Shown here one piece after another: positions 2,097 through 62,373 of a DNA stretch of 64,000 bases; position 1 is the stretch's first letter, and every line of letters starts with the position of its first letter. Below the pieces are notes generated by a model, which saw only the letters and a program-made list of their open reading frames with translations, was not told the DNA's origin and searched no databases. The translations under genes and the position numbers were made by a program. The DNA is taken from the IMG/VR virus record IMGVR_UViG_3300032038_000010, positions 32,001-96,000 of that record. One strand, given 5' to 3'. This DNA comes from a virus (lineage: Duplodnaviria; Caudoviricetes).

Positions 2097-4187
2097 TTAA
2101 GCTGAAGCGCAGGCAACAAACCCATAGCCACCGGCGGCCGCGCGATTGTAGTCGGCACTCCCGCCCGAGCTCACAAGGCAGAAGTAATGTGAACTGCCCG
2201 AATAAACTGAACGCAAGAACCAGTGATTAGCGGAATTCGTTGGCGTACCATCTACGTTTGTCCAATGCATTATTTTACGAGAAGAGGTCTTAAAGTAGGT
2301 GTACTGCGTACCTTCGTTTGCAGGAGCATACTTCTTAGCACCTTGTACTTCAAACTCAGATAACATAAATATCTTCTCACTAGAGTCACTTTGCGTAGCA
2401 GAATTATATGACATACAAGTTTTTCTTGTAGTTGTCTTAATAACTTCCTGCCATGGAGTAGGCATAGCTTTTAAGAAGGTATCATTTAACCAAGTACGAC
2501 GTGCGCATTGTGCCCAGCCACCATTATTAGTGTTACTGGAACCATTCATAGTAGAACCACCATTGTTATCACCTTTAACCATTAGGTCTTGCATCCCGAT
2601 AGTGACAGAAGCTGTCGTTTTACCATCTTTAGGAGTAGCAAGTGTATCATGATCAAAATCTAAAATAACAAATCTCATTTTTTGAGCTACATGAGATGCG
2701 GTACCAGGCCATTCTCCTGCATTATTTCCAGATAATTCATTCATAGCAGCTAAATCCATTACAGTAGCCTCATTAACTGCCCAATAATCTTGTAAATTAA
2801 TTCCATTCTCTCCATAAGATGCTTCAATCATTGCAGCAAGCTGTTCTGGTGTACCTTCAGTAAACTGAACCAATTCCAAAAACGTACATTTAACTGCATT
2901 ATCTTTACTTAAATGAGTAGAGATAACAATATTCTATGTTTTAGTTGTTTTACCCTTAGTAGCAGTTACGGTATAAGTATCTGACTTATGAATAACTAAC
3001 ATAGTAGTACCATCATCACCAATAGTGCCTGTATATTCTTCTTTAGTATTAACACCAACAGCTTTAACACTAGCACCTTTATCAGAAGTAACAGTTAACC
3101 AAGCAGTAAAGTACTGATATGTCATTGAATATGATTGCTGTCCATTCGCAATAGCCGTTCTTGAAGCAGTAGCCGCAGGTGTCATCAATCCATCTACTTC
3201 ACTTACACTAACTGTATAACTATGACCAGGTAGAATAACAGCTTTAGCCTCTCCTGCTGCCGTCATAGAAAGATTCTGTGTATACTGACTATCTGTTTGG
3301 TCTGTAACAGTAATAGTATGCGCTCCAAGCTCAGGAACATCTACTCCTTCAATAGGAGCTACACTCGTTGTGATAGTAACAACTTCGCCTTCTACTGTGG
3401 TAACATTAAACTGTGCAACTCTAGTTACTCCACCTTCAGAATATGAAACAGTAATTGTCTGAGGGTCAGTTGCAACAGAAGCAGCAGTTGTCGGTGAATA
3501 AGTAATATTCTCATTGTCCAACACTTCTGTATTACCACTAGTATATGTAGCAGTAACAACCATACCATCAATATTAATAGGATCATTAGCATTATAAGTT
3601 AGCTGAGTAGGTTTCGTAGTAATCTCAATACTATCAAGAACTCTTGATACTGTAAAGCTCTGTGTAGTAGTCTTAGTTACATCACCTTCAGTATAACTTA
3701 CTGTAAATGACTTATCATCTTCATACAGTGCGGTCCCCGCTACAGGGTCTACCGTAACTGAACTTGTGACGTTTTCAGTGGCGCCGCTATTATACTTTGC
3801 AGTAACAACCATACCAGATAGATTAAGCGTTTCACCTGCTGTATAACTTAATTTAGTAGGTGCTTTTGTAATCTCAATGCTATCAAGTGTTCTAGTAACA
3901 ATAATAGGCTGATTTGCTGGATGCGTTGCCCCAGTTGAATCAGTATAAGAAATATCAATCTTTGTTACAGTTTCATATACTGGAGTTCCTTCTGCAGGGA
4001 CATAAGTACAAGAATTAGTAACATCGTCTGAAGTACCATCAGACCATACTGCAACTATCTTTAATCCTGTTAAGTCAAGAAGCTCTCCAGCTTTATAATT
4101 TGTTTTAGTAGGTCTACTAGCAATTTGTAATGTACGCAGCTTTACAGTTCCGTCACCTGACCCACTAGTTAAAAATACTTTCCCCAT
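2097..4187 (-). CDS. DGR target: tail/adhesion protein with three Big_3-type Ig-like repeats and a C-terminal CLec-like (DUF6273-like) variable domain, 696 aa
   Basis: ORFs 2934-4187 and 2097-2879 join in frame through one TAG at 2934. Repeats of the form SIEIT.PTKL.Y.AGE.L.L.GMVVTA.Y. The C-terminus WFLRS...G.A....A....GFVAC is encoded by the VR. Confidence 0.9.
2108..2235 (-). repeat. DGR variable repeat (VR) at the 3' end of the target gene
   Basis: Matches TR except for 19 A-to-N substitutions. The GGGTTTGTTGCCTGCG end is invariant, followed by IMH divergence. Confidence 0.97.
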
Positions 4188-4204
4188 TCTCTATTTATCT
4201 CCTT

Positions 4205-4783
4205 TTACTCATCTTCCGCAGCTAATACTGCTATTTGTATATTAATATCAATAGCGTGAGAACTAACAGCATAAAAAATAATACCATTATCTATAGTCTC
4301 ACCATAATAAATATCTGAAAAAGCAAGAGTAGCACCTAAGTCCTTAGCTCCTGCTTCAGAATTTAAACCAACTAATACACTCATAGCTGAAGTAATTCCA
4401 TCAATAGCTACTGTTTGCGTAAAATAACTGTCAGCGGCGACCCACCCAGACCCAGATAAGGTAGCCGTATAGACGGCCGCCACAGATGAAGAAACCGCAC
4501 TCAGCATACCATTTGCATCTGCTGTAATAGTAGTTCCATCAGGTTTAACTAAACCTAACTTATCTTTCGTAGCGGCGCCTGGCTTATTTAAAATCTGCGC
4601 GCGCCCCTTCGTAGCGTTCCAATCTGGAGTTGGATTAATTTCATGTCTAGTTATACCACCATCATCGTCGGCCGCATCTATAAATAATCCACTATCATCT
4701 GTTGTTAAGTAGAACTTTCCGTCAGATAATGTGGCTGGTAGTCTCCCGCTCGGACCACGATTCAAAAGTTTATCTTCTGCCAT
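4205..4783 (-). CDS. Tail fibre-associated protein, 192 aa
   Basis: ORF track. ATKDKLGLVKPDGTTI fibre-like motif; C-terminal domain resembles that of 4797-5174. Confidence 0.6.
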   Translation of the reverse strand: MAEDKLLNRGPSGRLPATLSDGKFYLTTDDSGLFIDAADDDGGITRHEINPTPDWNATKGRAQILNKPGAATKDKLGLVKPDGTTITADANGMLSAVSSSVAAVYTATLSGSGWVAADSYFTQTVAIDGITSAMSVLVGLNSEAGAKDLGATLAFSDIYYGETIDNGIIFYAVSSHAIDINIQIAVLAAEDE

Positions 4784-4796
4784 TTCATTACCTCAC

Positions 4797-5174
4797 TTAT
4801 ACTACACTTAACATACCAATTTTAACTTGTAAGTCTATATCAGGTTTTGTGTCTGCATAAACCGTGATAAAGTTTTTTCCAGTTACACCGTAATAAATAT
4901 AAGCAAACTCTGTTGCTAAGTCATCGTTTTTCATAGCACCCTGATCTGCTGACATAATAATATCAGTTTTATCAGTTATACCATCTACTGTAACGGTTTG
5001 AATGAAGCGACCAGAATTATCACTAATCTCAGTCCAGCCAGACGCAGGGAAAGTTACAGTTAATACTGCGTTCATATCTCCTACAGTTTCACTCAAAGCG
5101 CTAATTTGCTTTTGCAAATCTAAAGCAGATTGTACTTGTTGTACTACATAAGCTGCCTCAGGCCATGCACTCAT
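4797..5174 (-). CDS. Tail fibre-associated protein, 125 aa
   Basis: ORF track. Short coiled coil plus a GW...QTV.VDGIT...IYYG.T domain shared with 4205-4783. Confidence 0.6.
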   Translation of the reverse strand: MSAWPEAAYVVQQVQSALDLQKQISALSETVGDMNAVLTVTFPASGWTEISDNSGRFIQTVTVDGITDKTDIIMSADQGAMKNDDLATEFAYIYYGVTGKNFITVYADTKPDIDLQVKIGMLSVV

Positions 5175-8959: not shown

Positions 8960-10996
8960 TTATAATTTCTGTTGACATTTATAAGCAGATATATTCATCA
9001 AAGAATCTATATCTAAAGGTAATGATATAGACTGAATCATATAATCTCCATTAATTCCTATAACATTATCTTTCACACTAACTCTTGTGTTAGGTTCAAG
9101 ATAATAAATAGGTATAGATGATAATTGAATAGTTTCATTCATATTAGTATATTGATATAAAAGCTATGTAATTCTTTGATAACAACTATTCTGAGTTCCT
9201 CCTACAGTAAATAAATCAAATAATGTTTGATCTACTTGCATATAATCCTGACCTCTTGCAACGCATTCATTTATTTGCTCTTGTTGCTACTAATCAGATA
9301 AATTAATATCAATAAATACTAAATCTGGTATGGATTGTTCAAAAACACAATTAATTTTATCTTCTGAAACAACTACACTGCGGCGGCCTATATTCTAAAT
9401 ACTATATTGACCAACCTAAGAATTATCATCTATTAAATCTAACCAGTAATTAATTTTACTTGGATTTTCTCTTACACTATCATAGAATTTTTGAGTCTTA
9501 AGATTAAATAATTTAGGCCATTCATTTACTAACTAAGTAAAATAATAAGGTTGAGCAGTACCGGTATCTAAAGCCTCAACACCCTAATAATATAGTTCCT
9601 CTCTCCAATCTACAGTAGTTACAGTATAATTAGGTAATTCAATTTCATTAAATTCTTTTTTAATCTAATTATACATATAATATTTAGGAGAAGTTAAATA
9701 CCCAATTACATATATAGTATTCTACTTCCCCTAAGGAGGAAGAACCTAGACCTATTTCATAAAATCTGCGGCCGCCCTAATTATACCATTATCATCTGTA
9801 TAATAACTTACATAATGTGTTTGGCCTATCTATGGTTTTTTATCTATAGCTAAATGGTATCTAACAGGAATCTACGTCTAGCCATCTGCTAATTTGCGGA
9901 CACCCCAAACTAAGAAATCATTTTTAACATTATTATAATTAGGAGTATTACTTGTACTAGATATTAACTTAGTCCCCTAAAAACTATATACAGATTTTCC
10001 GCTAGAGAAGTCCACATTATAATTAGGATCTCTATTAATATGATTTAATATCTCCGTAGTGTAAGTCGTATTTAAATAATTTTTTATCTCTTGAAAATGA
10101 AAATAACCATTCACATCATAAAAATATTCATAATTACCAAGTGTTGAAATAATTTTATCTAATACACTTGTAACTGTCGCCCCAGCATCACAATTTAAAT
10201 CGCCAGGATAAGTAAAATCAGTTAAAATGAATCCGATGTCGGAACCTGGTTCGTATGTGATAATATCTGACTCCTATACGCCGTAAGCACCTGCGGCCGC
10301 CGTAGCCTAATCATAAGTATAATAGAATTGTCTAGTAATTGTGTCATCTACTGTATGCTATAAATAAAATATAGGTTTATTCCCATTATATCTCATGACT
10401 TGTTTTATTTTATCATCTAAGTCTTCGATAATAATTTTAGCTGCATCTTCAGCCCCAAAATGATTAACAAGCTAATATATTATCTTAGATATAACTGGAT
10501 AAGTTATTTCCCCATATTCATTCTCTTCCTAACTGAAAGTGACTGCAGCGGGTATAACTCCTCCCAAATCTCCATTCAATAAACACATTTTATCTTTAAG
10601 AGAAATATTAATAGTTACTCCCGAATTTTGATGACTCAATGAGACCGCCGCAATCACAAATATTCCTAATGGAAACCAAACTATATCACCATATTTAGGA
10701 TTTATTTCATTCTTAAATCCTAATTCAAGTTTAAGTTTCCTATTAATAGATAAATTTTGATCTATATTAGTTAAATCATTTTCTTGCTCTTCTGCGAACA
10801 TACTAAAATTGGATGTACGCCTTAAAGAAGAATTACCATCTAGGTTTAAAGAGCCTGAAGTAGCTTTACCTTGAATCTCTACTATAGGCTCTTCTCCCCA
10901 AGTTAGTATAGTTAAACGCACATATTGTTCTTTAATTCGCAGATTATCTAATTCTTTAAGAAAAACAGAATCTTGTAAAAAATCTGTACTATTCAT
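8960..10996 (-). CDS. Tail tip/hub protein (DUF5048-like), ~678 aa, TAG-rich
   Basis: ORFs 10529-10999 and 8960-9142 are in the same frame, linked by TAG-only interruptions. TGATG overlap with the upstream gene. C-terminal PIYYLEPNTRV motif. Confidence 0.8.
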
Positions 10997-13635
10997 CAAT
11001 ATATGCCTTTCTATGTTTCTATTTGATAATTAACGATTGCATTGACAGGGCAAGCTATTTCATAAGTTTTTGTGTTAGGTAAATATGCGGCGGGCCACCA
11101 TTTACCATTATAAAAGATATGGGCGACGCCATCCTCATAAGCAGATAACTGAGTCACAACTGTAGGCTTAGAACTATTAATCATACCTTGATGATTATTT
11201 AATTTTCTAGCTTCAATACTTACTCCATAAAAATAAGCATCTGTAATAGTTGATGTGTTATCACCTGGGTCTATAAATAACTAATTTGTTTCATCAATTA
11301 TTAATTTCTAATAATTACTGTCTGCTTTTGTCTGAACATAAATAATTGTACCTTGATTAGCTTCAACATCTATATTCTTTAAAGAATTCACTTTTAAATA
11401 ATATTCATCTAAATCTTCATGATATTTTTGATAAATAGTATTCCATAAACTAGACTTGGAATTAAAATTACCGAAAAGTTGGCCCATAACACTTTTATAT
11501 ATTAGGGAATTAGCAATATTACTTGTATCTTTTTCTTCTGACAGTTCAATTACAAAATCTAATAATATTTTTGTATCTTTGAGTGGGGTAATATTCCAAC
11601 TAGATGTAATAGATACATCACTACCTCTTATCTAGTATATATTATTTGGAGGCTCAATTAATATATTCTAACCATTTATATTAATTAAAGTACCAAGTAG
11701 AGTATTTTCATCTACTGTATCTACGCCTTCAACAAATGGACTTAACACTCCATTATTATTATTAATTAAATAAGGCTCTGAATCTATCTCAATACGCATA
11801 TAAGAAATAGAAAAATCATTAATTAATATATCATTAACACTTTCCCCTACATGGTATTTAGATTTAATAGTTTCTATATTACTTTTTATGCCTGATGTTC
11901 CTAGTAAATTAAAATTAGCAGGATAAGCTTGCTCCTAGATAGAACCATCTTCACTATATTTAAATCTATTCAGCTGCCCTAATGTTGTCTATGACCAAGT
12001 AATACTATTCTGCGGCGCCCCTATTTTTTGAATATTATATTTATCAAAATTCTAAATTGTAGGTTCATCGATTTCTATTGCGGTGCAATCGAAAGAATAA
12101 AGCAGCCGCCCCAGTTCTTGCTTAGGAGTAAGTGTGATACCCATTAACTTAATAAGGATATTTCCCTAAGTTAATGATTTAAATAATTTAGGCTTATTAT
12201 CATATAAAAAAGTTTTAACTTTTTCTCTAAATTCTCTCTATAATGTGTAATCATACTCTCCTGAAATAACATTTAAAGTATGGCTTCCATGAGCCTATTT
12301 ATATAGACTCGTTTCGTTATCTAATAATTCATCTTCATTAGTAAATAAATTATTATTATCCATGCAAGCTGTAATTAGACCACTTAAAGGAAAAGAATGA
12401 TAATACATATTACCATTACGTCTTACATATGGATATTTGCTACCTATGGTATCTGTTTTTGATTCTCCTATATTAATTGAAGCGTTAGCAATATTAGTAT
12501 CATATCTAAGTTTTAATTGTAGGGCCTAAGATTTAGACCCGCCCTTTTCTACAAGGAAAGCATCATCAAACTAGCCCATCTATTTACTAGATGTAACTAG
12601 ACTACCTCTGCGCCCCTTCTACCTTAATTGCGCTCCATACTGATAGAATACTCCAGATTTAATAGTAAAATCATCAAATTCCCACCTAATAGTAGAATCT
12701 ATTGTTGTATAATTAGCTACATCCTACCATATTTGAAATTGAGATTCAGAAGAAGTACGTCTAAGTGTAATATTATTCCCTCTAGCAGTAAAAACCGCAT
12801 TAACTACAACTGCCGCATATCCATCTTCCTAGTTGATCTACAATTCTACTGTACCATTTAACGGAGAACTAGCAAATGTAATAACTTGAAATTTATATGA
12901 AATACTATCTTTATACCCGTTTCTTGTCTATATTTCATAAGTAAGAGTATAATGGGCATTATTCTTCATAGTATAACGCAGTTGACATTCCATTTGAGTT
13001 TTACCATTTACAGAAGTGAAAACATTAGCTATTTGTTCTCCTGAATCAGCTAATAATTCGTTCCCCTATTCATTATAAAGTTTTATTCTCCAAGTTTTAA
13101 GAGTCTATTTACCATTTCTTGTATTATTAGGGTCATATACTCCTACGAATATTGGTTCAGCAGAACCATAAGTATTAGTAATAGATGAATCTGCATCCAT
13201 GAAATTCGTTATGTATATCTGCGGAGGTACTATTGGTTTTATCAGTGTAACAGTAGACCATTCAGATACATCAGACGATAAATTTGCGGCGGCCGCATTA
13301 CTAGGCCATGCCCGACCACTAAACCTGAGTTGTACTTTATAAATCATATCTGGATCAAATGGTGATTGAACTAAGTCACTTGGGTCTAATGTAACGTAAT
13401 ATAGAGTCACCCCATCTGACTAAATATGATGTATTGTGGTACATTTAATTTTATTTGGATATTTATTTGTATTTAGAGCATTTCTATTATTTGTTTGATA
13501 CTTAACAGTTAGTTGAACTTGTGCTATACTGCTAAGTGAATTAAATTGCGAGAGCTGGAAATAAATGTTAACCGACTTAGTATACGGAAAAGCATTTTGA
13601 CCCGCCGCAACAATAGGTGGGAATAACATACCCAA
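10996..13635 (-). CDS. Distal tail/baseplate protein, ~879 aa, TAG-rich
   Basis: ORFs 13420-13635 and 13105-13410 continue in frame (...DTIGSKYPYVRRNG...PKLFKSLT*GNILIKLM...) to TGA at 10996. Confidence 0.8.
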
Positions 13636-14123: not shown

Positions 14124-17100
14124 TTATTTATTTTTTATTAATTTTTTAAGCTATTTTATTTCTGCTTTAAGCTACATAATCTATTGTTCTTGATGTTGAA
14201 TCATTGAAATGTGAAGTGCATGAAGTTCACTATAATCAAAAGTATAATATTCATTTTCCCCATTATTTAAATACTTAGTAACATCAAAATTTATATCTGA
14301 ATCTTTAGCTTTATTTTTTGATATAAATTTAAATTGATTATTCTAAATGTTTAAATTTTTGTTAATATCTTGTTGCACATCTTGTGCAATTAAACCAAAA
14401 TGAATTTTATTATAGTCTTTATCAATTTTAGAGTATTCTTCACAATATTTAAAAGTAACAGGCTGTAACTGTTTATAAAACTAAATAATATTATCATTAG
14501 ATAATTGATGGATATTAGTTTTTAATCTTTGATCAGATGTCTTGCCGCCGCCCGCTCCTTTTCGCTCAAAATTATCTTGAACATAAGTAACTGAAGCAGC
14601 ATTTGCCCCTTGAAAATCAATATTCCCATAAGCAGTCAAAGCAGCAGTTAAATCAGCTGTGGTAGAAGGTAAATCAGATTTTTTAACGTAAGGATTATTA
14701 TAATTTTGTTTTAAGTAATTATTAAGTTCTGGCCTAATGACAAGATCTTCAATATCTATCCTGATATTATCTTTAGTAATTAAAGTATCAGCTTTAATGC
14801 CATTAGCTTTAATGCCATTAGCTTTAATATTACCATCTTCATCCCAATAACAACGAGAATTATTTAAATATATTAAATAAGGATCGTACTACCCTCCAGC
14901 AATAGGTTTCCCAATTCTAATGCTAAAATAACCTGGTGAAGATTCTGAATGGTATCCGCTGTTTGCTCTAAACACACCTCTCGCCCAAACATTACCAGAA
15001 GAAGCTGCATGGAAAGCTGCGTCAACGCCACTTCGAGTATCAGTATAATTTAATAAAATAAAGCCTTTACCATCTCCAAGACTAGATGTACCACTTGTAC
15101 CGATCCAAACATCATTATTACCAGCTTTATAATAACCATTTTGGCCATCAAGTATTACATTATTCTAAATAGATTTTAAATATCTACCTTGATTGGTATC
15201 GTATATAGTCCAACCGCCAATAGTGCCACTCGTCGCAGTAATTTTACCACTGAAATCGCCATCAATAAATTTGGCATTTTTAGCAGTTAAATTACCAATA
15301 GAGCTAACTACAAAATTATCTGGGCCAAAATTTAAAGAGCCATTAGAATTTATAACAGCATTACCACTTACGCTATGTATACTATTGTAATCAATTACCC
15401 ATCCTGCTATATTTCCTTTAGCCGTCCATAACTCACCATTAAAATAACCATCAGTAAAATAACTATTATTAGCAACTAGATTCCCCTAATCATCAACAAA
15501 GAAATTAGAACCTCTACCCGCAGTAAAGCTACCATCTGAATATACTATAAATTTATTATTAACATCAATACGTTTATATTTGAGTCCACTACTATAATCT
15601 TTAACAGGATACCAACTAATAACGCTTCCATTATTATCTTTAATTAACTCTATCCTTGTAGGATATTCACCTTGACCATTGTCATTCTTATAAGAATATA
15701 AAGTAGTTTGCCCATCTTGGCTAGTTAATTTTTTATCACTAATCTTCCATCCGGCGATATCACCACCACCTTTAGCAGTTAAATATCCTTTAGGGGTGAC
15801 ACTAAAATTTCCACTCTTAAATTTAATCTAAGGTCTGTCAAAATCAATTAACATACCCTAAATTCTATCTCCATGAAAATAGCTCCAAGAAGCAATAGTA
15901 CCATTAGTACCGCCACTAGCATCGGTACTAATGTTAATCTGACCATGCCCCGCCGCACCGAAACTAGCAGAACCAGTATTTGCATCTAAGAAAAATGTTT
16001 GAACACCTTTCCCGTATCCAAACATACCAGTCTGTTCATGAGCGGCCGCCCCTGGTTCAGAATACATAGAGGTACCAATTACAACACCAGTAAATCTATT
16101 ATTATTATCTTTCTTGCCTGCACCAACTTGTGGAGCTAAAATATAATTATCTCCGTTAGTATTAGTAACTATTGATGTACCATCCCAACCATTTATATAA
16201 GCCATGCCGTATCTATTTAGGTATAAATAAATAGTTATGATAATAGTATAGTCACGATATTTAACTACTACATAATTATTAATAGATTTACTATCATATT
16301 GTGAAGGAGGCTCAATAGTAACAAACTCTGGATGATTTTCATCTTTTCTTTTAACAGAATTAGTATCTAGTACTCCTGCCCAATAAGGTTTCCATATTAC
16401 TTCTGTAGGATTTACAAATTGTTCTACTCCATCCTTGAATAATCTAAATCTAAATGGTTTCCCATTAAAACTAGTCCTAGTACCGTCAGATTCATACATA
16501 CATTCTCTATATCCACCATCTACTATAGCGAATATAGTTTCATCACCTGTAGTAGCGATATCAATAGGGTATGTAGCGTAATATCTTTTTCTCTCATTGA
16601 CTCCGCCATAAGTAGTAGCTAATTCAACTTGGGCAACAGAAGCAGAATAATTATTACTCTTATAACTTATAGCTCCATTTGCGGCGACCGTGATATTAGG
16701 ACTCACATTTTTAACTACTTCCCCAGTAGGAAGAGTCATAACACTCCAATTAATCTCTTTAGAAGAATCATTCAACTGGTCTGTCGTAACTTTTATCCCA
16801 GCTGACACCCCATCATATAGCGGGGCCGCCCCATCATCATAAAATAATAATTTTAAAGGATAAGAGTCATTTATCTATTTGAAACTAAAATTATCTGAAT
16901 AAGTTGTTTCTCCACTTGTTGAATTATAGTGGACTTCTGTTAGTTTCTTATATCCATATAATCTACCATTACTAAAAAATATATTATCTATATTATTAAT
17001 AGCAGGCTGTATATTTGCTATGTATTTAGTGCCATTACTTCCACTTTGTCCCTATTTGATAAATATAAAATTAGTATTAGCAGAATAAATTTTACCACCA

Positions 17101-18962
17101 AATGTTACTTCAAGTCTAATAGTATTATCTGTTCTATCCGTATCATATATATTTCTAATCCCATAAGTAAAAGTAGCACTATCAGCTAATATAGTTCTTT
17201 CTATGTTACTATTGTTACTTGGATTAGTTATAATCTATTTACTTAAAGCTACATCAGTAGTAAGCATTGTATAATTATCTTCTGGCCATATCCATTTTGG
17301 GGCAAAAGTCTATACAATCTAATTATTTGTCATATCATTTGTAATTAAACTTTTACCCTATGGAGTAATAACGTCAAAAGATAAAGCTATTGGAGTTATT
17401 TTTGGAGCTTTACCATATTCATCATAATTAAATACTTTGGAACCATTTTTAATAACTACTGTGACATTCTACGTCTATCCATTAGTTAAAGTAATATAGC
17501 CAGTACCTACATAATGGCCATTTGAGCTATATGCAGTACATTCATAAGTAACAATATCTAAAACTTCATGTATTCTGACATCTATAATATTATTGTGACT
17601 ATCCAAATTAATCAGTGTGCCATCCTTAGTCCTATAGCCCCAATAATATACAAAATCTAAATATGGAGTTCCACTAACAATAGCTGTAAGTTTAGTGTAG
17701 CCTGTGTTAAAATAAAATTGAGTACCGGCAGTAGATGTAATAAGTAATTTAGTCCCGACATAATAACTAGCATGATAAAAATTAATTTCAGCATTTAATT
17801 GAATATTATCATATATAGCTACGCACTTAAATATATGCTATTTACTTGGAACTAATGTAGGTTTAATCTAATATTTTGCGGCGGCCGCCATCCACGTCCC
17901 TGACCTACTTTCATTCAAGCAGCGCCATCCAGCTCCGCCGTATGAATTATAATATTTAGTACTTTCCGCAGTAATACTTGTATCTTTAATAAACCAATAA
18001 AATTCAACTTTCTCTGTTGATAGATTAATTTTTTTACCTTTAATTTTTAATTCAGCTTCCAAATATCGAGTATCATCATTATCACTTATGATGTAATTCC
18101 CATTTGGAGTTAAAATTTTTAACGAGGCGGTCGAAAGTTCATCATTATTTAAAGGCTCCGCAAAAAATAATCCAAAGTTAGATAAGAAAATATCATCAGG
18201 TTTATGGTATTTAGTATTTGGAAAATCTTTACAAAATGCTGTTATTGCAGAAATATCATATAAATTATTTCCATCTATCTAAAAATATACTACTTGTTCA
18301 GTAGGTAAAGTAAATTTATATGGTTGCCCAATCATATTATTCACATCTAAAACATAAGTACGAGTTATTAGCTTATCTGGGTCAGCAGATTGATGGGCAT
18401 ATTGTGAATCATAATATCTAGCTTGAAGTATTATACCATAATTACCGGTGACTTGTTGCTCTAAAGGTAATGCCGTCTGAACAGTAGCTTTTAAACCAAT
18501 GTATGCGCGCCCGTCCTTATTTAAAGTAATATTCTATTTATCTACTGATAATCCATGTTGCAGAAGATCAATAGTCTGAACCCCGCTATAAGAACAAAAA
18601 TTAACTGCGGCGGTCCCCACTAAAATATTTGACCCTATCTATGTCATTCTATCTGATGGGGTAAGAACATCTAAATATTGAGTTCCCTTTTTAGCAATTT
18701 TACTGATTATTGTAACTACAGTATCAGGATTGGATGGAAGTCTAATAAATACGTTATCTCCAATTCTATATTTTGTATTACTATCTTCTGAATAAGCATT
18801 TAATACACTATTTTGATATTGTACTTGATAATGACCCAAACCACTATCTATAACTTGTAAGATAGAGGCTCTAACAGTTTTATCAAATTGAAGATTTGAA
18901 ACTCTGTTTTTAATTAAAGTATCTACCGCTTGAAGTACGGTATCTTCAATACTTGTTGTCAT
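14124..18962 (-). CDS. Large tail fibre/spike protein with C-terminal S74-type intramolecular chaperone, ~1612 aa, TAG-rich
   Basis: ORFs 18639-18962, 17868-18062 and 15858-16808 share one frame to TAA at 14124. IAGW/IGGW fibre repeats, then SDQRLKTNI...HFGLIAQDV...YSELHAL and a terminal coiled coil. Confidence 0.8.
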
Positions 18963-18988: not shown

Positions 18989-19016
18989 ATAGGAGGGGCG
19001 GCCCGCCCCCTCCTAT
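18989..19016 (-). terminator. Hairpin/terminator after the tape measure gene
   Basis: ATAGGAGGGG...CCCCTCCTAT inverted repeat. Confidence 0.55.
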
Positions 19017-22000
19017 TAATAAGTTCTCCTATTCTGACTAGCTAATTGTGAAGCACGATTAACTAAATTATTAAGAGCATTTTTAATTTCAAGAGCATCC
19101 GAAACATTAGGGAAATCAGCATTGATGACTACTGAAGTCTCATTGTTTGTATTGTTATCCATTGTAGGTATCTTACCAGAATTAATTCTATTTACACTAT
19201 CTTGCGCGAGTCCTAAAGAATTGATTATAGCATTACTAATCTTTAATGCAGCTAAAGTATTTTTAGTATCTTCTTGGTTAAGAATTAATTCTTTCTGGTG
19301 GAGCATAGCAAGACGACCTTCTCTTCCAGGCCAGCTACCAGTGTAACCGCCAGTTGCGAAAGATGAAGTATAGTATCGACGCAAATCTTTATCATGCCAA
19401 TCTCTATACAAATCACCATTACGAGCATGCTGATTAATATAGTCTTGCACAGCTTTAGCGTTATTAGCACCAACTTTCTGCGCTAATAATCCACTTCTAA
19501 CAGGATCATTACCCCATCCAGAGTCTTTCTTCATCCAGATGGCTGCCGCAATACCTGCAACATCATTAGAATTAAGATTAGTATTATTACTGCTTCCCGC
19601 TTTATTTGCATTACCATTATTGTTGCTATTGCTCTTGTTAGCATTATTGGTCTTATTAGAATTATTAGGTTTTTTGCTTTGATCAGGAGAAAGAGTTCCT
19701 CCACTTCCATCTTTATTTTCTTTCGCCCTCTAGAAATCGCGGGCAGCCTGCGCGGCTTGTTGTGCAGCTAGCTTAGCAGCATCATACTATTTAGCTAATT
19801 TTTGGATTTCCAACCAAAGATTACGGACTGTAGTAATCTCATTATCAAATTGAGTAACTAACGCACCATTTTCATCTAATAAAGTAACAGTAGCATCATA
19901 TACAGGGTCAATACCTGAAGTTTTTAATTCCTAGAAATTAAGTTTACCTTTGTCTTCGACTTCTTGTAAGCTATCCTGGTATTCACCATTTTTAACTTTG
20001 AGTTCTTCTATAGCAGGTTTGATTACTGTATCTTTTAAATTATTTACATCTTCTGTAATATTTCCTACAGTAGTATCCCACATACTGCTAATGCCTTGGT
20101 CTTCAAGTAATGTCTTACGAGCTTCATCAGTTAAGTTTTTATTAAAGTTACCGACAAAAACATTATTAACAAAAGAGTCAAGTAAAGTAGGAACCTTACC
20201 ATCATCGCCCATAAGAGCATTAATAGAGTTCCATACACTTTTATCTGCGGGACTATCACCTAGACCAAGGAAGTTACGAGTTTGCTCGCCAAGAGTCTTA
20301 AGCAATGTTGCATATTCAGTACCAGTCGTATTCAATAGCTCAGATTGCATTGCTTGATGATCAACACCTAGTTTGGTTAAGATACCATCTTCACCTAAAT
20401 AAGCCTCTTGTAACTCGGCAAGTTTTTCTTGTAATAATTCTTGGTCATCATAATAAGTTTCAGTTAACTCTTGCGCTTTGTCAAAGAACTCTTCAATTTT
20501 TGAATATGCTTCATCTGTTGTATCATTAAGGTCTTCATCTTCCATTTGACGAAGTTCTTCAATTAAATCTCTTAGTTCTTGGGCTTTATTTTGTGAAGCA
20601 TCTTCATCAGCAACATACTGATAAGTATAATTACCTTGGCTATCACGGCGTAATCTCATTTGAGTTTTAGCCTGTTGAGCATCTTCAAGAGCCATCTGAG
20701 CTTTCATAATCTCAAATTTCTTATTAGCAATATCTACATCGATTTGACGTAAGTTTGTAATAGACTCAAGATTACTAATCTCGCTATTCATGAACTTAAG
20801 CATATCTTTTTGCTGCTTAGGTGCCAAATCATTCATTGCTGAATTAACATCAGCTTGGAATCTAGCAATATCAGTAGCTCTAGTTAAGTCATCTAGATAA
20901 CGATCATCATTCCACTGTGCGCGGTCCCACTCATCTGCGGCGCTCTGCCATGCTCCGCGGCCGCCACCCGCAAGCTTATCTTTAGCGTCTTGAATAATAT
21001 ACTGGACAGCGTTGTTATATTTATCTAATAAGTTTTCTACAGAATTTTCTACAGCATCGTTTAATCCATCAACTGAATCCATCCAATTATCACGGAACTT
21101 TTTCCAATCTTCTGACTGTTCAGCCATAGACTTAGATGGATCATATACGGAATCCATTTTAGATTTCCACATATCGGCTTCTTGGCGATACATATCAATC
21201 TCATTAAGATAATTTGCTTGGCGCTTATTAAAGAATTGTTCTTGAGCCTTGAGGTTTTGCGGGTACAAAGTTTTTATAAGATTCATATCATGCTCAAGAA
21301 CCTTATCTACTTGTTCATATATCTTGATTTGTTCTTCAAAAGCATCCTGTGCTTTATCAATTTCATCAAGATAATTTTCCCAAGTATCTTTCTTTAACTC
21401 TTCAACGTCTTCAAGATTTTGCATTATCTCTTTTTGATAATTCTTCAAATCTTCAAGGCCTTGCGCCATATTATCGCCATAGCGGTTTGCCTAGCCAGCT
21501 TCCATCTTCTTTAGTTCAGCTATTGTATCATTGATATGGCCAGTCAATTCTTGGATTTCACCAGTGCCGCCTTGATTGTAATATGTGTAAAAATCATCAA
21601 TATTAGTTTGAGACTGACCTAAGAAATCATCTTCTTTGACTTGTCTGATAACTTTTTCACGGAACTTATTCCAGTCGCGTTCAGCTTCAGCGGTATCAAT
21701 TACAATGTCAATATGAACTTTGAAAGATTTAATAGAATTTTCAATTTGCTGATCTATTAATTCTTGTTCTTCGTCTTTAAGATCTTCGACTTGGTCCTCA
21801 AGATCTTCCATTGACTAACGAAGTTTATCATATGCATCAATTTTATCTTTGACGTCATTATAGTTATCTGTTTCATTCTAAATCTTCTCTTCTAACGCCT
21901 TCATCTGCTTATCAAGTTTTTCTTTATAAGCCTTGTCAGTAGAAGCGTTATATTTATCTTTTAACAGATTAAATTGTCTAACTAAATCATTAACGATTGC

Positions 22001-32623: not shown

Positions 32624-32655
32624 ATATTTATCCTCCTAAATTATGAATCATCTGA

Positions 32656-41886: not shown

Positions 41887-42672
41887 ATGAAACGCTATGT
41901 ATTTTCAGATATACATGGTTCAAAAGACTTATGGAACCAAATAAAATCTTATGTAAATAAGGACGATTGGCTTTATTGTCTTGGAGATGTGATTGATCGC
42001 GGTCCCGCTGGAGTTGAAATTTTTCTAGATCTATACAAGAGACCAAATACAATCATACTGCGCGGTAACCACGAAGATATGGCGGCCGCAGCTGTCCCGC
42101 CACTTTTAGCTGGCACTGCGCAGATGGATGGTAAGTGGCTTAATGAACATACTAAGCATGGCGAAATAGAAAATACTTATGTATTAGATTGGTATAATAA
42201 TGGCGGTATTCTGACTTGGAGAGCTTTACAAAAATATTCAAAAGAAGAAATCCAAAAAATAAGAGATATATGGGCAACACTCCCAACTAGTTTTATAGTT
42301 TATGATGACCAGAATCATTGGTATTACTATCTAGATCATTGTGGCTTCACACCGAGCTCCCGCGCATATAGATTACCATATTGGGATCGTTTACACTTTG
42401 ATGATGAATGGGATGATTGGGCAGATGGAAAAAATGTAAGAATAATTCATGGTCACACTCCAGTGCAATCTTTTGAGTCTACCTTTTGCCCCAACGGATT
42501 TGTAAGATATACAACACTTCATCCAGAAGATGAGCGAATGATAAATTATATTCCGCAAATAGCTGTCTACTGCGGAGGTCATAAAGTTGATATTGATTTA
42601 GCTGCTATTGATAGCGGTCGCACAATGCTCTTAGATTTAGATAAATTTGAACCTATATATTTTACGACTTGA
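41887..42672 (+). CDS. Calcineurin-like metallophosphoesterase (Ser/Thr phosphatase/NinI-like)
   Basis: SDIHG, GDVIDRG, RGNHE and HGHTP motifs. Confidence 0.9.
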   Translation: MKRYVFSDIHGSKDLWNQIKSYVNKDDWLYCLGDVIDRGPAGVEIFLDLYKRPNTIILRGNHEDMAAAAVPPLLAGTAQMDGKWLNEHTKHGEIENTYVLDWYNNGGILTWRALQKYSKEEIQKIRDIWATLPTSFIVYDDQNHWYYYLDHCGFTPSSRAYRLPYWDRLHFDDEWDDWADGKNVRIIHGHTPVQSFESTFCPNGFVRYTTLHPEDERMINYIPQIAVYCGGHKVDIDLAAIDSGRTMLLDLDKFEPIYFTT

Positions 42673-46284: not shown

Positions 46285-46719
46285 ATGTTATTATTCAGAA
46301 AGAAACAATATTACCAAAAACGTGCAAATAAAATGCGTAATACTCTTGAAAAATGGGATATTGAAAAAGAAACTCTTAAACAACAGGAAGAAATAAATCA
46401 TGAATACCAAGAAATTAAACAGATAAATGCAAAAAAGAAAATGGCTACATCTAAAGTTATTTTATTCTTATTTATAGGAATGTGTTTATTTGGTATGTTT
46501 TTAACGGGATGGGCTACAATTCAATCTGTAACTATAGCGGCCGCCCTTGGTGTTATGCCAGACTTCGCCCCTATTGTTGCATTTATTGGATCCGTAGTAG
46601 CTCCAATTATTCCAATCTTTAGATATTATCAAAAATCAGAAAATGAAAATACTAAAGGTGGAATTGTTTATGATTCAGTCATTTCTAATAATGAAGATGA
46701 CAGTAATGGAGTCGGTTAA
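46285..46719 (+). CDS. Holin-like two-TM protein, 144 aa
   Basis: Two TM segments and a YY.KS..EN.KGGI.YD tail; directly before the endolysin. Confidence 0.6.
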   Translation: MLLFRKKQYYQKRANKMRNTLEKWDIEKETLKQQEEINHEYQEIKQINAKKKMATSKVILFLFIGMCLFGMFLTGWATIQSVTIAAALGVMPDFAPIVAFIGSVVAPIIPIFRYYQKSENENTKGGIVYDSVISNNEDDSNGVG

Positions 46720-54185: not shown

Positions 54186-54773
54186 GTGATAAATATGATT
54201 GATTGTTTATATCAACCATTTAAACATTGGGCAAATAATAAAGCTATTTGGATTTATAGTGATACTCATTTTGAAGATTCTGATTGCCATTTAATGGATT
54301 CAAATTGGATTACTCCAACTGAGCAAATCAAAATTTTAAATAGCCAAGCAGGTCGTAAAGATACTTTAATTTTACTTGGAGATATTGGAAATCCTGAATG
54401 GCTAAATAAACTTCATGCAAGCTATAAAATATTAATTACGGGCAATCATGATAAAGGAACATCAATATATAAATCTTATTTTGATGAAATATATAACGGG
54501 CCACTTTTAATAGCAGATAAAATTTTACTTAGCCATGAACCTATTAATGGATTAGATTGGTGCCTTAATATACATGGGCATGATCATGGCTCTAATGGCG
54601 GCCGCGTTAATTTAAATCATTATTGTGTTTGTTCAAATACTGTTCAATATAAAGCATTAAATTTAAATAGTTTTATTAAAAATGGAGGATTGGCACATAT
54701 TCCTTCAATTCATCGTTTAACAATTAATTATGCAACAGAACATAGTTTACATAAAGAGGTAGATAATGGATAA
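54186..54773 (+). CDS. Calcineurin-like phosphoesterase
   Basis: SDTHF, LGD, GNHD, SHEP and HGHDH motifs. Confidence 0.88.
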   Translation: MINMIDCLYQPFKHWANNKAIWIYSDTHFEDSDCHLMDSNWITPTEQIKILNSQAGRKDTLILLGDIGNPEWLNKLHASYKILITGNHDKGTSIYKSYFDEIYNGPLLIADKILLSHEPINGLDWCLNIHGHDHGSNGGRVNLNHYCVCSNTVQYKALNLNSFIKNGGLAHIPSIHRLTINYATEHSLHKEVDNG

Positions 54774-56691
54774 ATTAGAAATGGGAGCTTTGGTTAATAA
54801 ACTTAATAAATATACTGAAGCTTATGATGCAGGAACACCTCTTATTTCTGATAAAGAATGGGATGAATTATATTTTCAATTAGTGGAAGCAGAAAAAGAG
54901 ACTGGAATTATCTTACCTAATTCACCAACTCAGTCCATTCATTTTCAGACTGTTACTAAACTAAATAAAGTAAAACATAATCATCCAATGCTTTCATTAG
55001 ATAAAACAAAAGATGCTAATACAATTCAATCGTTCCTTGGAGAAAAAGATTGGATTGCTATGTGTAAAATGGATGGATTAACTTGTTCTTTAAAATATGA
55101 AGATGGAAAATTAGTTAGCGCGGAGACAAGAGGAAATGGAGAAATAGGAGAAGATATACTCCATAATGCACTTTGTGTAAAATCTATTCCTCATAGTATT
55201 CCATTTAAAGATGAACTAATTGTAGATGGAGAAATAATTTGCACTTATAATAATTTTAAACTATTTTCTGAACAGTATAAAAATCCAAGAAATTTTGCAT
55301 CGGGCAGTATAAGATTGCTTGATTCAAAGGAATGTTTTAAACGTAATCTTGATTTTATTGCTTGGGATGCTATTACTAATTTTGCAAGTACATTATCTAT
55401 CAAATTACTTATATTGCAATCTTATGGTTTTACTGTTGTACCAAGAATTATCAAAGATGATTCAATTACAATAGAAGACGCTATTAATGAACTTCAAGAA
55501 AGAGCAAATGAGTCATCATATCCAATTGATGGCATTGTATTTAAATATGATTTAGTAACAGATTATAATGCGGCAGGCCGCACAGACCATCATTTTAAGG
55601 GTGGAATGGCATATAAATTTTATGATGAAACTTATTCCACTAATTTAAAATATATTGATTGGACAATGGGGAAAACAGGTATTCTTTCTCCTGTTGCTGT
55701 ATTTAATCCAGTAGATATTGATGGTACTACTGTAGAAAGAGCTTCTTTACATAATATTAGTATTATGCAAGAAACAATGGGTATTCCTTATGAGGGAGAA
55801 GCTCTTGAAATCTTTAAAAGTAATCAAATCATTCCGCAGGTATATTCTGCTGAAAAGAAAAATGATATTATACCTTTAGAGATACCTAAGATTTGTCCTA
55901 TATGCGGTCAGCCTACTGAAATTAAAGAAGATGGTATTGCTAAAATATTATATTGCTCAAATCCTAATTGTGAAGGTAAACTATTAAATCAATTAGACCA
56001 TTTTTGTGGTAAAAAAGGATTAGATATTAAAGGATTATCAAAAGCAACACTATCTAAACTAATTGATTGGAATTGGGTGTCTTATTTTAAAGATATTTAT
56101 AGATTAAATGAACATAAAAAAGAATGGATACAGAAACCTGGATTTGGTGATAAATCTGTTCAAAATATTTTAAATGCAATAGAAGAAAGTAGAAAACCAG
56201 AATTATGGCGAGTGATTGCGGCCGCCTCTATTCCAAATATAGGTGGAGTTGCATCTAAAGAATTAGCTAGTTATTTTAAAACTTATGCTAATTTTAGAAA
56301 AGCAGTTGAAGATAATTTTGATTTTACTCAACTAGAAGATTTTGGAGAAGTCGCAAATTATGATATTTTGAATTTTAATTATACAAATATTGATGATGTA
56401 GTATCTTATGCTTTTGAAATTCAAGACGCGGCGGCCGCCCCTCAGGAGATGTCGCTAGACAAGGTTCAGTTTTGTATCACTGGTAAATTACAGCATTTTA
56501 AAAATAGGGACGAATTAAAAGCAAAGATTGAGTCTCTTGGCGGTAAAGTAACTGGATCAGTATCAAGCAAAACTAATTATCTTATTAATAATGATATTAA
56601 TTCAACTAGTGGTAAAAATAAGACAGCTAAATCTCTTAATGTTCCAATCATTAGTGAAGATGACTTCCTGCAAATGGTATCTTCTAATTGA
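54766..56691 (+). CDS. ligA: NAD-dependent DNA ligase
   Basis: H..PMLSL, KMDG, TRGNG..GE, NPRN.ASG, Zn finger, HhH and BRCT. Confidence 0.95.
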   Translation: MDKLEMGALVNKLNKYTEAYDAGTPLISDKEWDELYFQLVEAEKETGIILPNSPTQSIHFQTVTKLNKVKHNHPMLSLDKTKDANTIQSFLGEKDWIAMCKMDGLTCSLKYEDGKLVSAETRGNGEIGEDILHNALCVKSIPHSIPFKDELIVDGEIICTYNNFKLFSEQYKNPRNFASGSIRLLDSKECFKRNLDFIAWDAITNFASTLSIKLLILQSYGFTVVPRIIKDDSITIEDAINELQERANESSYPIDGIVFKYDLVTDYNAAGRTDHHFKGGMAYKFYDETYSTNLKYIDWTMGKTGILSPVAVFNPVDIDGTTVERASLHNISIMQETMGIPYEGEALEIFKSNQIIPQVYSAEKKNDIIPLEIPKICPICGQPTEIKEDGIAKILYCSNPNCEGKLLNQLDHFCGKKGLDIKGLSKATLSKLIDWNWVSYFKDIYRLNEHKKEWIQKPGFGDKSVQNILNAIEESRKPELWRVIAAASIPNIGGVASKELASYFKTYANFRKAVEDNFDFTQLEDFGEVANYDILNFNYTNIDDVVSYAFEIQDAAAAPQEMSLDKVQFCITGKLQHFKNRDELKAKIESLGGKVTGSVSSKTNYLINNDINSTSGKNKTAKSLNVPIISEDDFLQMVSSN

Positions 56692-60625: not shown

Positions 60626-60701
60626 TTAATCACTATTTTATGTAGAGGGGATTATTGATAAAATAATCCTCTCATATTTTTCTATGAAAGGATGACTAAT
60701 A

Positions 60702-61736
60702 ATGGCAGATATTAATATTTTTAACATTCAGCCGCATCAGGTTAGTCGTGATATGAGAGGATATTCCGTATTCTTCTACGGCGAACCAAAGAGTGGCAAG
60801 ACTACCACCGCATCAAAGTTTCCAAAGAGTCTTTTGCTTGCATTTGAAAAAGGTTATAATGCGCTACCTGGAGTTATGGCACAGCCTATCAATAGCTGGG
60901 CAGAGTTTAAAAAGGTTCTTCGCCAGCTGAAAGAATCTCAGGCGCATGAGATGTTTGAAACAATCATTATTGATACATCTGATATTGCGTATGACTATTG
61001 CACAAAATATATCTGTGATAATGCGCCTCGTTCAGATGGTGGATTTGGTGTTGACTCTATCTCAGATATTCCTTATGGTAAAGGATATGGAATGATTTCA
61101 AAAGAATTTGATTCATGTCTTCGTTCTATTGTAATGATGGATTATGGTCTTGTTATCATTTCTCATGCAACCGATAAGACTTTCACTGATGAACAGGGTC
61201 AGCAGTATAATAAGATTGTTCCTACTCTTGACAAAAGAGCAAATAATATTGTATCTCGTATGTGCGATATTATTGGATATTCACGTATTGTAACCGATAA
61301 AGAAGGCGTTGAATCTACAAAACTTTTTATTCGCGGTACTTCACGTTTTGAAGCTGGATCAAGATTTAAGTATACTCCAGATTATATTGATTTTAATTAT
61401 AAGTCTCTTGTCAATGCTATTGGTGATGCTATCGACAAACAGGCTAAAGAAGATGGAGAAGAGTATTTTACTGATACTCGTAGCAATCTTTATGAAGATA
61501 CTACTAAGAATCTTGATTTCGATGAACTTATGGCTACATTCAATAGCCTAGTTAAATCTATTACGGATAAGGCTTCTGATGAAGAAATGCAATCTTTTTG
61601 GGCGCCTCGTATTCAATCTATTACAGATAAATATCTTGGTAGAGGAAATAAGGTTAATAATATGTCAAGAGAGCAGGTTGAAGCTCTTTCACTTATCAAT
61701 GATGACTTGTCTGAATTAATTAATTCAAAAAAGTAA
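60702..61736 (+). CDS. Sak4-like/AAA_24 ATPase (recombination)
   Basis: YGEPKSGKTT, LLLAFEKG, IIIDT, YGKGY and ISH motifs. Confidence 0.8.
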   Translation: MADINIFNIQPHQVSRDMRGYSVFFYGEPKSGKTTTASKFPKSLLLAFEKGYNALPGVMAQPINSWAEFKKVLRQLKESQAHEMFETIIIDTSDIAYDYCTKYICDNAPRSDGGFGVDSISDIPYGKGYGMISKEFDSCLRSIVMMDYGLVIISHATDKTFTDEQGQQYNKIVPTLDKRANNIVSRMCDIIGYSRIVTDKEGVESTKLFIRGTSRFEAGSRFKYTPDYIDFNYKSLVNAIGDAIDKQAKEDGEEYFTDTRSNLYEDTTKNLDFDELMATFNSLVKSITDKASDEEMQSFWAPRIQSITDKYLGRGNKVNNMSREQVEALSLINDDLSELINSKK

Positions 61737-61848
61737 ATTCTTTAATATATACTAGATTTTTTTAAGAGGAAGATAGATAATATCTTCCTCTTTACTTTTT
61801 TATAAAAATATGATATAATAAATATAAGAATGAGGTGATATATTTATT

Positions 61849-62373
61849 ATGACAAAACATATTGTAATATGTCCATTCTGTAAACAATCTTTCGATGCAC
61901 AACCCGAAGGAGAAAATAAAGAATGGATTAAAATCAAACGCCGTTATGCTCATATGTCGTGTTATATTGATCATGAACAAAGCATGACTCAAGAGGAAAA
62001 AGATTTAAGAGATTTAGTAACATATATACAACAATTATTAGGTGATGATTATGTATATATGAAGGTAAAGAAACAAATAGAAGAATATCATAATAAATTT
62101 CAATATTCATATACAGGAATGTTGTCGTCTTTAAAATGGTATTATGAAGTTCAAAACAATAAAACAGATAAAGCTAATGGTGGCATAGGAATAATTCCAT
62201 ATATTTACAACGATGCTAAAAAATATTATTATAATATTTATTTAGCACAGCAGAAAAATGCCACTATAACAAACTACCAAGTGCCAGTGAAAGAAATTTC
62301 AATCCAGTCCCCTCGGATGTATGAGCGGCCGCCGCACTTATGGTTTGAAAATGATGAGGAGGATGAAGATTAA
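61849..62373 (+). CDS. Hypothetical Zn-binding replication protein, 174 aa
   Basis: CxxC...HxxC and GIGIIPY; directly before the helicase. Confidence 0.65.
   Translation: MTKHIVICPFCKQSFDAQPEGENKEWIKIKRRYAHMSCYIDHEQSMTQEEKDLRDLVTYIQQLLGDDYVYMKVKKQIEEYHNKFQYSYTGMLSSLKWYYEVQNNKTDKANGGIGIIPYIYNDAKKYYYNIYLAQQKNATITNYQVPVKEISIQSPRMYERPPHLWFENDEEDED

Follow-up and report, generated by a model that had tools for sequence, protein, structure and literature searches.

The stretch of viral DNA considered here, called the window (64,000 nucleotides; bases 32001-96000 of IMG/VR record IMGVR_UViG_3300032038_000010, a Caudoviricetes genome of 136,945 bp estimated to be 89% complete), carries 21 exact copies of the GC-rich palindrome GCGGCCGC, the NotI site, between positions 2134 and 62332. 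The excess of this word is a DNA-level property with no coding effect behind it; it runs against the codon and tRNA preference of the phage itself, and it belongs to the phage rather than to the cellular DNA with which related contigs are binned. The octamer joins two copies of a shorter word, GCGG/CCGC, head to head (GCGG|CCGC); this shorter word is over-used throughout a clade of gut and rumen phages and is extended to GCSGC. In kind, it would be the phage counterpart of the highly iterated palindromes (HIPs) of cyanobacteria. The explanation placed first, though held tentatively, is that the word is kept by selection for copy number, as putative sites for a phage-specific dimeric DNA-acting protein.

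An excess at the level of DNA

Dinucleotide shuffles of the window lead to an expectation of 0.07 copies of GCGGCCGC, and base composition to 0.038. A sequence-only reading of the same DNA, made by a model without database searches, had counted at least 21 copies, and all 21 are found where it placed them. Over the whole record the octamer occurs 36 times and a control pattern, the word read backwards, not at all; the observed number is 319 times the expected one in the genome and 556 times in the window. Octamers are on average ~3.8 kb apart (0.26 per kb, or 263 per Mb), and the next most frequent 8-bp palindromes have 3 copies each, which makes GCGGCCGC an extreme outlier among words of its length, as HIPs are. 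With up to one mismatch allowed, the window holds 55 matches against 1.85 expected; the single-mismatch variants include those at 4473, 4668, 7562, 7613, 8867, 16822, 34200 and 36023 (all reported earlier, the fifth and the last at about 8870 and 36026), and the variants GCNGCCGC are themselves 30-100 times above composition. The maximal-order Markov expectation is uninformative, as the sub-words arise mostly from the octamer itself. The base composition of the window is C 0.179 and G 0.155, with a GC content ranging from 0.29 to 0.37 along its length; the earlier figure of about 0.16 for each base holds for G and is too low for C. Other palindromes and words are avoided in the whole genome (ACATGT 1, observed/expected 0.02; GATATC 3; GAATTC 5; CCCGGG 0; CCSGG 8 against ~43). 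This is as expected for restriction avoidance and agrees with the earlier remark that phages usually avoid palindromes; the excess of GCGGCCGC is therefore the more striking.

The window consists of two gene arms, on the minus strand to ~41.3 kb and on the plus strand thereafter, with 15 sites on the former and 6 on the latter. As the sequence-only reading had it, copies occur on both arms and in all frames: 18 are read as Ala-Ala-Ala (frame 0), two as Gly-Gly-Arg and one as Arg-Pro-Pro. On the minus arm, where all open reading frames (ORFs) concerned are on the minus strand, the site at 2134..2141 (frame 0, CGC GCG GCC GCC GGT, R-AAA-G) lies in ORF 2097-4187. Two frame 0 (AAA) sites, at 9768..9775 (AGG GCG GCC GCA) and 10293..10300, lie in the tail-like ORF 8960-10996, with the residues AKV, ARS and K-- at the first and RAA, DAL and EVQ at the second in relatives. 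The site at 13289..13296 (frame 0, AAAA, extended to GCGGCGGCCGC) lies in ORF 10996-13629, relatives having GGS, QKL and KY followed by TAG. The 1612-aa ORF 14124-18962 contains 16042..16049 (frame 0, AAA), where relatives show gaps or substitutions (--N, S--, IPN), and 17881..17888 (frame 0, AAAA, inside GCGGCGGCCGCC). The 3140-aa ORF 19016-28438 contains three, at 20957..20964 (frame 1, GGC GGC CGC, GGR), 23526..23533 (frame 0, AAA; SGN and SDL in relatives) and 24642..24649 (frame 0, AAAA). Of the two in ORF 28581-29147, that at 28591..28598 (frame 0, AAAA, inside GCGGCGGCCGCC) stands two codons ahead of the stop, and that at 28693..28700 (frame 0) encodes an AAA that is conserved, with different codons, in three relatives. 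The remaining minus-arm sites, all frame 0 and AAA, are at 32933..32940 (ORF 32641-33393, followed by an in-frame TAG), 34281..34288 (ORF 34031-35080; AGT, QST and ATH in relatives), 36075..36082 (ORF 35999-36586) and 38914..38921 (ORF 38259-39689, a conserved virion-module gene adjoining the portal gene; TPE, a gap and -EM in relatives). On the plus arm, in plus-strand ORFs, the site at 42082..42089 (frame 0, AAAA; metallophosphoesterase ORF 41887-42672) is the sole window site shared at the orthologous position in any of the relatives compared, namely in G001. It is followed by 46537..46544 (frame 0, AAA; ORF 46285-46719), 54598..54605 (frame 1, GGC GGC CGC, GGR; ORF 54195-54773), 56218..56225 (frame 0, AAA) and 56431..56438 (frame 0, AAAA, inside GCGGCGGCCGCC), both in the NAD-dependent DNA ligase gene 54730-56691, and 62325..62332 (frame 2, GAG CGG CCG CCG, E-RPP; ORF 61849-62373). 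Extensions of the octamer to GCGGC-GGCCGC, said earlier to be frequent, do occur (13286, 17878, 28588, 56428), at only 4 of the 21 sites.

That Ala-Ala-Ala is encoded by 18 of the 21 window sites, and that GCGGCCGC is a common linker sequence, would fit a by-product of coding or translation (alanine runs, codon-pair preference) or an assembly or adapter artefact. Against the former, the 36 sites of the genome comprise 23 in frame 0 (GCG GCC GCN), 7 in frame 1 (xGC GGC CGC), 2 in frame 2 (CGG CCG) and 4 between genes, and codon shuffles that preserve the amino acids yield 0.55 (codons pooled genome-wide) or 0.90 (within gene) sites in the window where 21 are observed. The corresponding numbers for the coding sites of the genome are ~0.9 and 2.5 against 32. 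The sequence-only reading had named a loss of enrichment under such shuffles as the outcome that would undo its claim; the enrichment stays. Even a first-order codon-pair Markov model, into which most of the signal is already built, predicts 11.6 GCG-GCC-GCN triplets genome-wide where 23 are seen. The excess is also at least as large between genes as within them, the observed/expected ratio being 11.4 against 7.2 for GCSGC and 4.0 against 3.0 for CCGC. Because the word occurs in all frames and in excess between genes, and because the codon-preserving nulls fail to reproduce it, its excess is not a coding effect but independent of coding, as in the HIP class; the earlier proposal of a DNA-level process rather than protein selection thus stands. 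An assembly or adapter origin is excluded, as every window site lies in frame within a called ORF and independent relatives, in many separate assemblies, carry the word elsewhere. Taken together, a by-product of coding or an artefact is extremely improbable.

The same preference is apparent in how alanine is written. GCG and GCC account for 14% and 10% of the alanine codons and are the two rarest, yet 23 of the 57 Ala-Ala-Ala tripeptides are written GCG GCC GCN. At identical composition the order of the codons matters, GCG GCC being used 35 times against 6 for GCC GCG, and GCC GCA 49 times against 12 for GCA GCC. The alanine tRNA of the phage has the anticodon TGC, and its tRNA set serves A/T-ending codons. 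No other homotripeptide is as over-represented as Ala-Ala-Ala, with 57 occurrences where 11.4 are expected, and the same is true of relatives; the DNA word has shaped the proteins, at a cost to them.

A nested word family in a phage clade

GCGGCCGC is the top tier of a nested, strand-symmetric set composed of GCGG/CCGC, then GCSGC, then the octamer. This nesting, the sharing of the family across the clade and its absence from co-binned cellular DNA were missed by the sequence-only reading. Among pentamers made of G and C only, GCSGC shows the strongest over-representation, with 2.4 copies per kb (2,420 per Mb) in this genome, and 36 of the 45 CGGCCG hexamers are preceded by G and followed by C. 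The base ahead of the octamer is preferably G or T, and the one after it C or A. Of the 36 sites, 33 have a G directly 5' or a C directly 3', seldom both, and the form seen most often is W-GCGGCCGC-C, which is asymmetric; the orientation of the flanks has no strand or arm bias. Compared to the amino-acid-preserving null, GCCGC occurs 332 times against 147, CCGCA 326 against 143 and GCCGCA 149 against 52, the last with 76 copies on the plus and 73 on the minus strand, and 71 sense and 61 antisense. The balance between GCGG and CCGC tracks base-composition skew only, and in this genome the two are nearly equal on both arms.

This strand symmetry, with equal sense and antisense use, disfavours a signal at the RNA level or a polar signal of the Chi type. 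In a Chi-like role the GCGG core would shield linear or rolling-circle phage DNA from a host exonuclease. The Chi sites of the Bacillota enzyme AddAB are AGCGG in B. subtilis and GAAGCGG in S. aureus, the probable hosts are Bacillota, and a spacing of about one octamer per 3.8 kb would suit such a role; a precedent exists as well, Bobay et al. having reportedly found in 2013 that Chi sites are enriched in phages relying on host RecBCD/AddAB. However, no polarity is seen with respect to strand or orientation, the preferred flank is T or G and not A, and contigs of the candidate hosts are unenriched (see below), so that a Chi-like signal is very unlikely.

The octamer has an orientation of its own. 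Its halves face each other in 36 pairs in this genome, against 25 direct pairs and 2 in the reverse order, GCCGCGGC; summed over eight relatives the counts are 67, 92 and 7. Random pairing of GCSGC pentamers, which predicts 1:2:1, fits neither set of counts, and a simple pentamer-pair model fails in view of the 36 GCGGCCGC against 2 GCCGCGGC; GCSGC itself is enriched clade-wide. Half-sites set apart by a spacer follow the same rule, GCGG-N3-CCGC occurring 25 times against 4.5 expected and GCGG-N4-CCGC 13 times against 2.1, and the opposite orientation with a spacer, CCGC-N-GCGG, is not enriched. As the head-to-head rule holds also with a spacer, the pattern resembles an inverted dimer of a GCGG half-site.

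Three intergenic copies, at 127059, 129100 and 136061 of the genome (window coordinates 95059, 97100 and 104061; outside the window), form the centres of palindromes of 17-28 bp. Their arm sequences vary between copies, the arms of each still being complementary, and all three sit just upstream of -10-like boxes. Near them are TTGACA-N17-TATAAT promoters with GC-rich hairpins directly after (genome 125.4 and 130.9 kb), an arrangement suggestive of early genes or of host takeover. The pentamer is also the basis of three longer words, GCGGCACTCC, GCGGCGCCC and GACCGCCGC, which have 7 copies each against 0.1-0.4 expected and are found in unrelated genes on both strands (window 2153, 22515, 42976 and elsewhere in the genome).

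To what kind of phage the window belongs is indicated by its portal protein, which is 40% identical to that of Phage Phass-1 and 29% identical to the portals of ~140-kb Enterococcus phages. Phass-1 is a TAG-recoded phage of 135,976 bp with a predicted Clostridia host (PMC10607447). An initial crAss-like identity was dropped because of these portal matches. The clade is composed of TAG-recoded phages of ~130-140 kb from gut and rumen, distant kin of Phass-1, with several hundred relatives at 60-74% portal identity in rumen and gut data. None above 74% was found in viral, genome or metagenome contigs, and gains and losses of sites are thus not polarisable. Nine genomes (G000-G008) were analysed in full, while G009 and G010 were only counted for NotI sites.

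In each of the nine long genomes, including G008, which has no NotI site, GCGG/CCGC ranks first or second among the 4-mers for over-representation (z = 20-40). The extension of the core differs between sub-lineages, with GCSGC and NotI sites in some and TTCCGCA/GCGGAA or GCGGCA in others, so that the preferred word changes within the clade (GCSGC, TTCCGCAA, GCGGCA). GCSGC reaches 1.2-2.5 per kb in eight of nine phage genomes, and GCCGC is the top pentamer in Phass-1. The numbers of NotI sites fall from 36 in this genome to 19 in G001, 18 in G002, 9 in G004, 8 in G005, 6 in G006, 5 in G007, 2 each in G003 and G010 and 0 in G008 and G009. The individual sites turn over. A comparison of orthologous positions, proposed by the sequence-only reading, showed them to be seldom shared (1/21, 2/20 and 0/18 in three comparisons), and the aligned residues in relatives are often unrelated (INK, TPE, GGS) or lie in indels. 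Where Ala-Ala-Ala is conserved, sharing of the site is, by our own count, about as frequent as codon choice alone predicts. Identity in the flanks of the sites, at 46.1%, is slightly below the average for the gene, 49.7% (p = 0.01).

In order to separate a phage trait from a host trait, cellular DNA binned together with clade contigs is informative. Such contigs are found in metagenome-assembled genomes (MAGs) of Bacilli, Erysipelotrichaceae, Acholeplasmatales, Anaeroplasmatales and Clostridia. Five of these MAGs, of 1.1-2.3 Mb, contain just 0-13 NotI sites, clustered on few contigs; six such contigs, from three MAGs, each encode 11-53 clade phage proteins, and two cellular control contigs encode none. 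The cellular contigs sampled from the five MAGs have no NotI sites, and their observed/expected ratio for CCGC is 0.3-2.7 overall (1.1-1.6 in six 20-kb samples, with 0.7-3.5 for GCSGC). In Enterococcus phage EF1, CCGC is not enriched either (1.06). Since the sampled co-binned cellular contigs lack the trait and the site-bearing MAG contigs examined are phage, the trait is the phage's own and not a property of a cellular chromosome which phages mirror; membership in a bin is, however, no proof of the host.

What may maintain or generate the word

Two readings are left, a copy-number pressure on the double-stranded DNA of the phage and a phage-specific conversion drive, of which the former is favoured. 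In the favoured reading, which comes first among the explanations while falling somewhat short of an even chance, the pressure would act on double-stranded phage DNA for the number of copies rather than their position. Most likely, the copies would be recognised by a protein specific to the phage, which would read GCGG half-sites in the form of an inverted dimer, with possible roles in genome organisation, replication or topology, packaging, or the marking of the phage's own DNA. Dimeric-protein sites are preferred over a repair drive because of the orientation rule, the tolerance of a spacer and the palindromic, promoter-proximal copies outside the window. Several results weigh against this reading. 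No reader protein was found for the word, no gene among the nine genomes tracks NotI density by its presence or absence, and the sites are not spaced with significant regularity (coefficient of variation 0.79, random placement giving 0.95; p = 0.11). A mutational or conversion drive would account equally well for sites that do not keep their positions, the excess of the half-word over a proper null is modest (~2.2-fold), and the MAG bins are candidate rather than proven hosts.

In the other reading, biased short-patch repair or gene conversion by a sequence-directed mismatch nuclease, of phage or host, would resolve heteroduplexes or deamination mismatches within near-cognate words towards GCGG/CCGC as a useless ratchet. 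Such a drive, possible but doubtful, is consistent with the turnover of sites and with the excess of the one-off variants GCNGCCGC, and the transition variant GCA-GCC-GC is the most depleted relative to codon usage (3 against 23 with GCG). The phage also encodes several homing-type nucleases and an NAD-dependent ligase, and a strongly conserved nuclease with a Vsr/EDxHD-like fold adjoins the portal gene across the clade. Very short patch (VSP) repair enriches CCWGG in E. coli, but we know of no VSP effect that comes near the 35-fold excess found here. Moreover, the degenerate position favours C as well as G, and variants with T are depleted too, a pattern that T:G-specific repair fails to predict; many sites also replace unrelated residues, for which several substitutions are required.

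The nuclease is a 118-aa stand-alone domain encoded at 41405..41761 on the minus strand. Its predicted model (predicted local distance difference test score, pLDDT, 90) finds its best compact matches in the catalytic domain of I-Bth0305I (template-modelling scores, TM, 0.58/0.69) and in Vsr 1cw0 (TM 0.53/0.42), weak matches that all have Foldseek E > 1e-3. PHROG families of HNH and homing endonucleases match the ORF through their C-terminal part, and homologues in related phages are annotated 'VSR homing endonuclease'. The Vsr profile PF03852 matches nothing in the genome at E <= 0.1, the ORF having a sub-threshold DUF2726 match only, and PDB sequence searches with the ORF and with its profile gave nothing significant. 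The gene stands beside the portal gene in 178 of ~183 related loci searched, and among 27 aligned orthologues its identity is 71-83%, against 60-74% for the portal; in the Enterococcus phages EF1 and VRE9, a copy with 51% identity occupies the same position. That the nuclease outconserves the portal and keeps its position in EF1 and VRE9 hints at a packaging-linked or other essential role rather than a decaying homing endonuclease. The gene alone is insufficient for the enrichment, as EF1 has its copy and CCGC at baseline. The term 'Vsr-like' used in the sequence-only reading suits the predicted fold of its candidate driver, which nevertheless has neither a Vsr family match nor an effect in EF1. 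A second candidate named there, the 92-aa ORF 57016-57294, has no significant family match.

A narrower version of the drive, regarded as unlikely, is a phage-autonomous process, independent of methylation, in which short-patch repair or gene conversion, directed by sequence and carried out by a factor of the clade, would turn near-cognate sequence into GCGG|CCGC. The factor may be the Vsr/EDxHD-fold nuclease beside the portal, with a specificity changed from that of its Enterococcus-phage homologue. If so, the phage would keep rewriting its own genes, hence the excess of Ala-Ala-Ala, and an origin mechanism would be at hand for iterated palindromes, unsolved for HIP1 of cyanobacteria.

Methylation offers less. 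The C5, N4/N6, Dam-type and N6_Mtase methylase families (PF00145, PF01555, PF02086 and PF02384) are absent from this record, and PF00145 and PF01555 are absent from the three complete relatives G001, G004 and G006. The four phage genomes searched pair the word with no detectable methylase, and the search leaves the methylation-driven generator that the sequence-only reading had put forward unsupported. A host GCSGC- or NotI-type methylase, with methyl-directed repair driving or selecting the word as Elhai proposed for iterated palindromes, is quite unlikely. In cyanobacteria the alternate iterated palindromes all co-occur with a cognate methylase, including GCsGC in Cyanothece PCC 7822 (PMC4390886), and the GCSGC density of the phage is close to the upper end of the HIP range of 1-2 per kb or slightly beyond it. 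A host-wide process should, however, mark the host chromosome too; the absence of the word excess from the cellular contigs, where GCSGC is at baseline and NotI sites are lacking, disfavours it, as does the absence of a phage methylase.

Genome context and known systems

The window also encodes GyrA, DnaB, PhoH, a Clp protease, an amidase and two GIY-YIG nucleases, in addition to the portal protein, the NAD-dependent ligase and a split GyrB. The gyrB pieces are at 47824-49374 (plus strand; GyrB and Toprim domains) and 50382-50795 (plus strand; GyrB C-terminal domain), separated by a GIY-YIG endonuclease ORF (49557-50270), which suggests a split gene or an intron; Rfam finds no group I intron, and a scan of the window and of L001 gave zero matches. 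The second GIY-YIG ORF is at 57362-58294. Outside the window, a 15-nt tandem repeat, CAACACGGGNNACTN, of at least 9 units lies within an ORF at 11127-11345 of the genome and encodes a pentapeptide-type repeat, and an intergenic element, GCGGCAGCCGCGG(T/G)GTGAA followed by further GC-rich sequence, has three copies (genome 1252, 23478 and 28219), the first of which, the only one searched, has no Rfam match. A thymidylate-synthase homologue, which would hint at base replacement, is absent from this record. The GenBank annotation of Phass-1 is uninformative on function, almost all of its genes being 'hypothetical'.

Reading TAG as a sense codon is needed to open the structural genes of the minus arm, the ORF coverage of genome 40-48 kb rising from 0.19 to 0.97; each of the minus-strand ORFs 8960-10996, 10996-13629, 14124-18962 and 19016-28438 contains 20-23 in-frame TAG. 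When TAG was translated neutrally as X and all nine genomes were compared with one another, the 3,676 in-frame TAG positions aligned with E in 31%, D in 8%, Q in 7% and K in 6%. The reference profile of glutamate codons is E 41%, D 11%, Q 7% and K 6%, and that of glutamine codons Q 38%, E 10% and K 9%. None of the 13 tRNAs in this record has the anticodon CTA; relative G004 has such a tRNA (G004:C1:3032-3104), whose 5' half is like the tRNA-Glu of the clade. Given the fit to glutamate rather than glutamine codons, and this tRNA, TAG is most likely read as glutamate, not as the glutamine assumed for 'code 15' phages including Phass-1.

HIP1 was described three decades ago, and why genomes become saturated with one palindrome is still an open question. 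To our knowledge, every case so far concerns a cellular chromosome with a cognate methylase. Here, phages of ~135 kb carry a HIP-like signal with neither a detectable methylase nor a signal in co-binned cellular DNA, which narrows the cause to something that the phage carries or needs and leaves ~150 genes to search. The word misleads gene callers and codon models for these phages and provides a simple clade marker.

The resemblance to cyanobacterial HIP1 that prompted the analysis is borne out by a GC-rich palindrome that is an extreme outlier and independent of coding. HIP1, GCGATCGC, extended to GGCGATCGCC, is a highly iterated palindrome of unknown function (PMC4390886; PMC5861425). Both words are GC-rich 8-bp palindromes of the form GCG-NN-CGC with G/C-preferring flanks, both have observed/expected ratios in the hundreds, and both occur in all frames and between genes and alter coding sequence. 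Unlike HIP1, the phage word has the centre GGCC instead of GATC, resides in a phage and not in the co-binned cellular DNA, is not accompanied by an orphan methylase of the GATC/CGATCG type and, over the divergence available, does not keep its sites at orthologous positions. The octamer density of 0.26 per kb compares to 0.3-2.7 per kb for HIP1; relative to a HIP range of ~1000-2000 per Mb, the octamer lies below and GCSGC just above. The closest match in sequence is GCsGC of Cyanothece PCC 7822, the identical five-base word and in these phages the top all-G/C pentamer. That strain has two GCsGC-specific methylases (PMC4390886), whereas none was detected in these phages; the phage pentamers, in addition, pair in one orientation, giving the octamer a specificity of its own, and the shorter core CCGC is common to relatives without the octamer.

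Like VSP (Dcm/Vsr) repair in E. coli, the phage may possess a sequence-specific process able to raise its own site, and a gene with a Vsr-like fold adjoins its portal gene. It differs in having no Pfam Vsr match, no methylase and an effect one to two orders of magnitude larger, and in that the EF1 homologue comes without enrichment. Chi sites of phages, finally, are likewise short GC-rich words with kilobase spacing, and the GCGG core resembles Bacillota Chi; Chi is, however, polar and shared with the host chromosome, while the phage word is strand-symmetric, has a palindromic top form and is lacking in the candidate host contigs.

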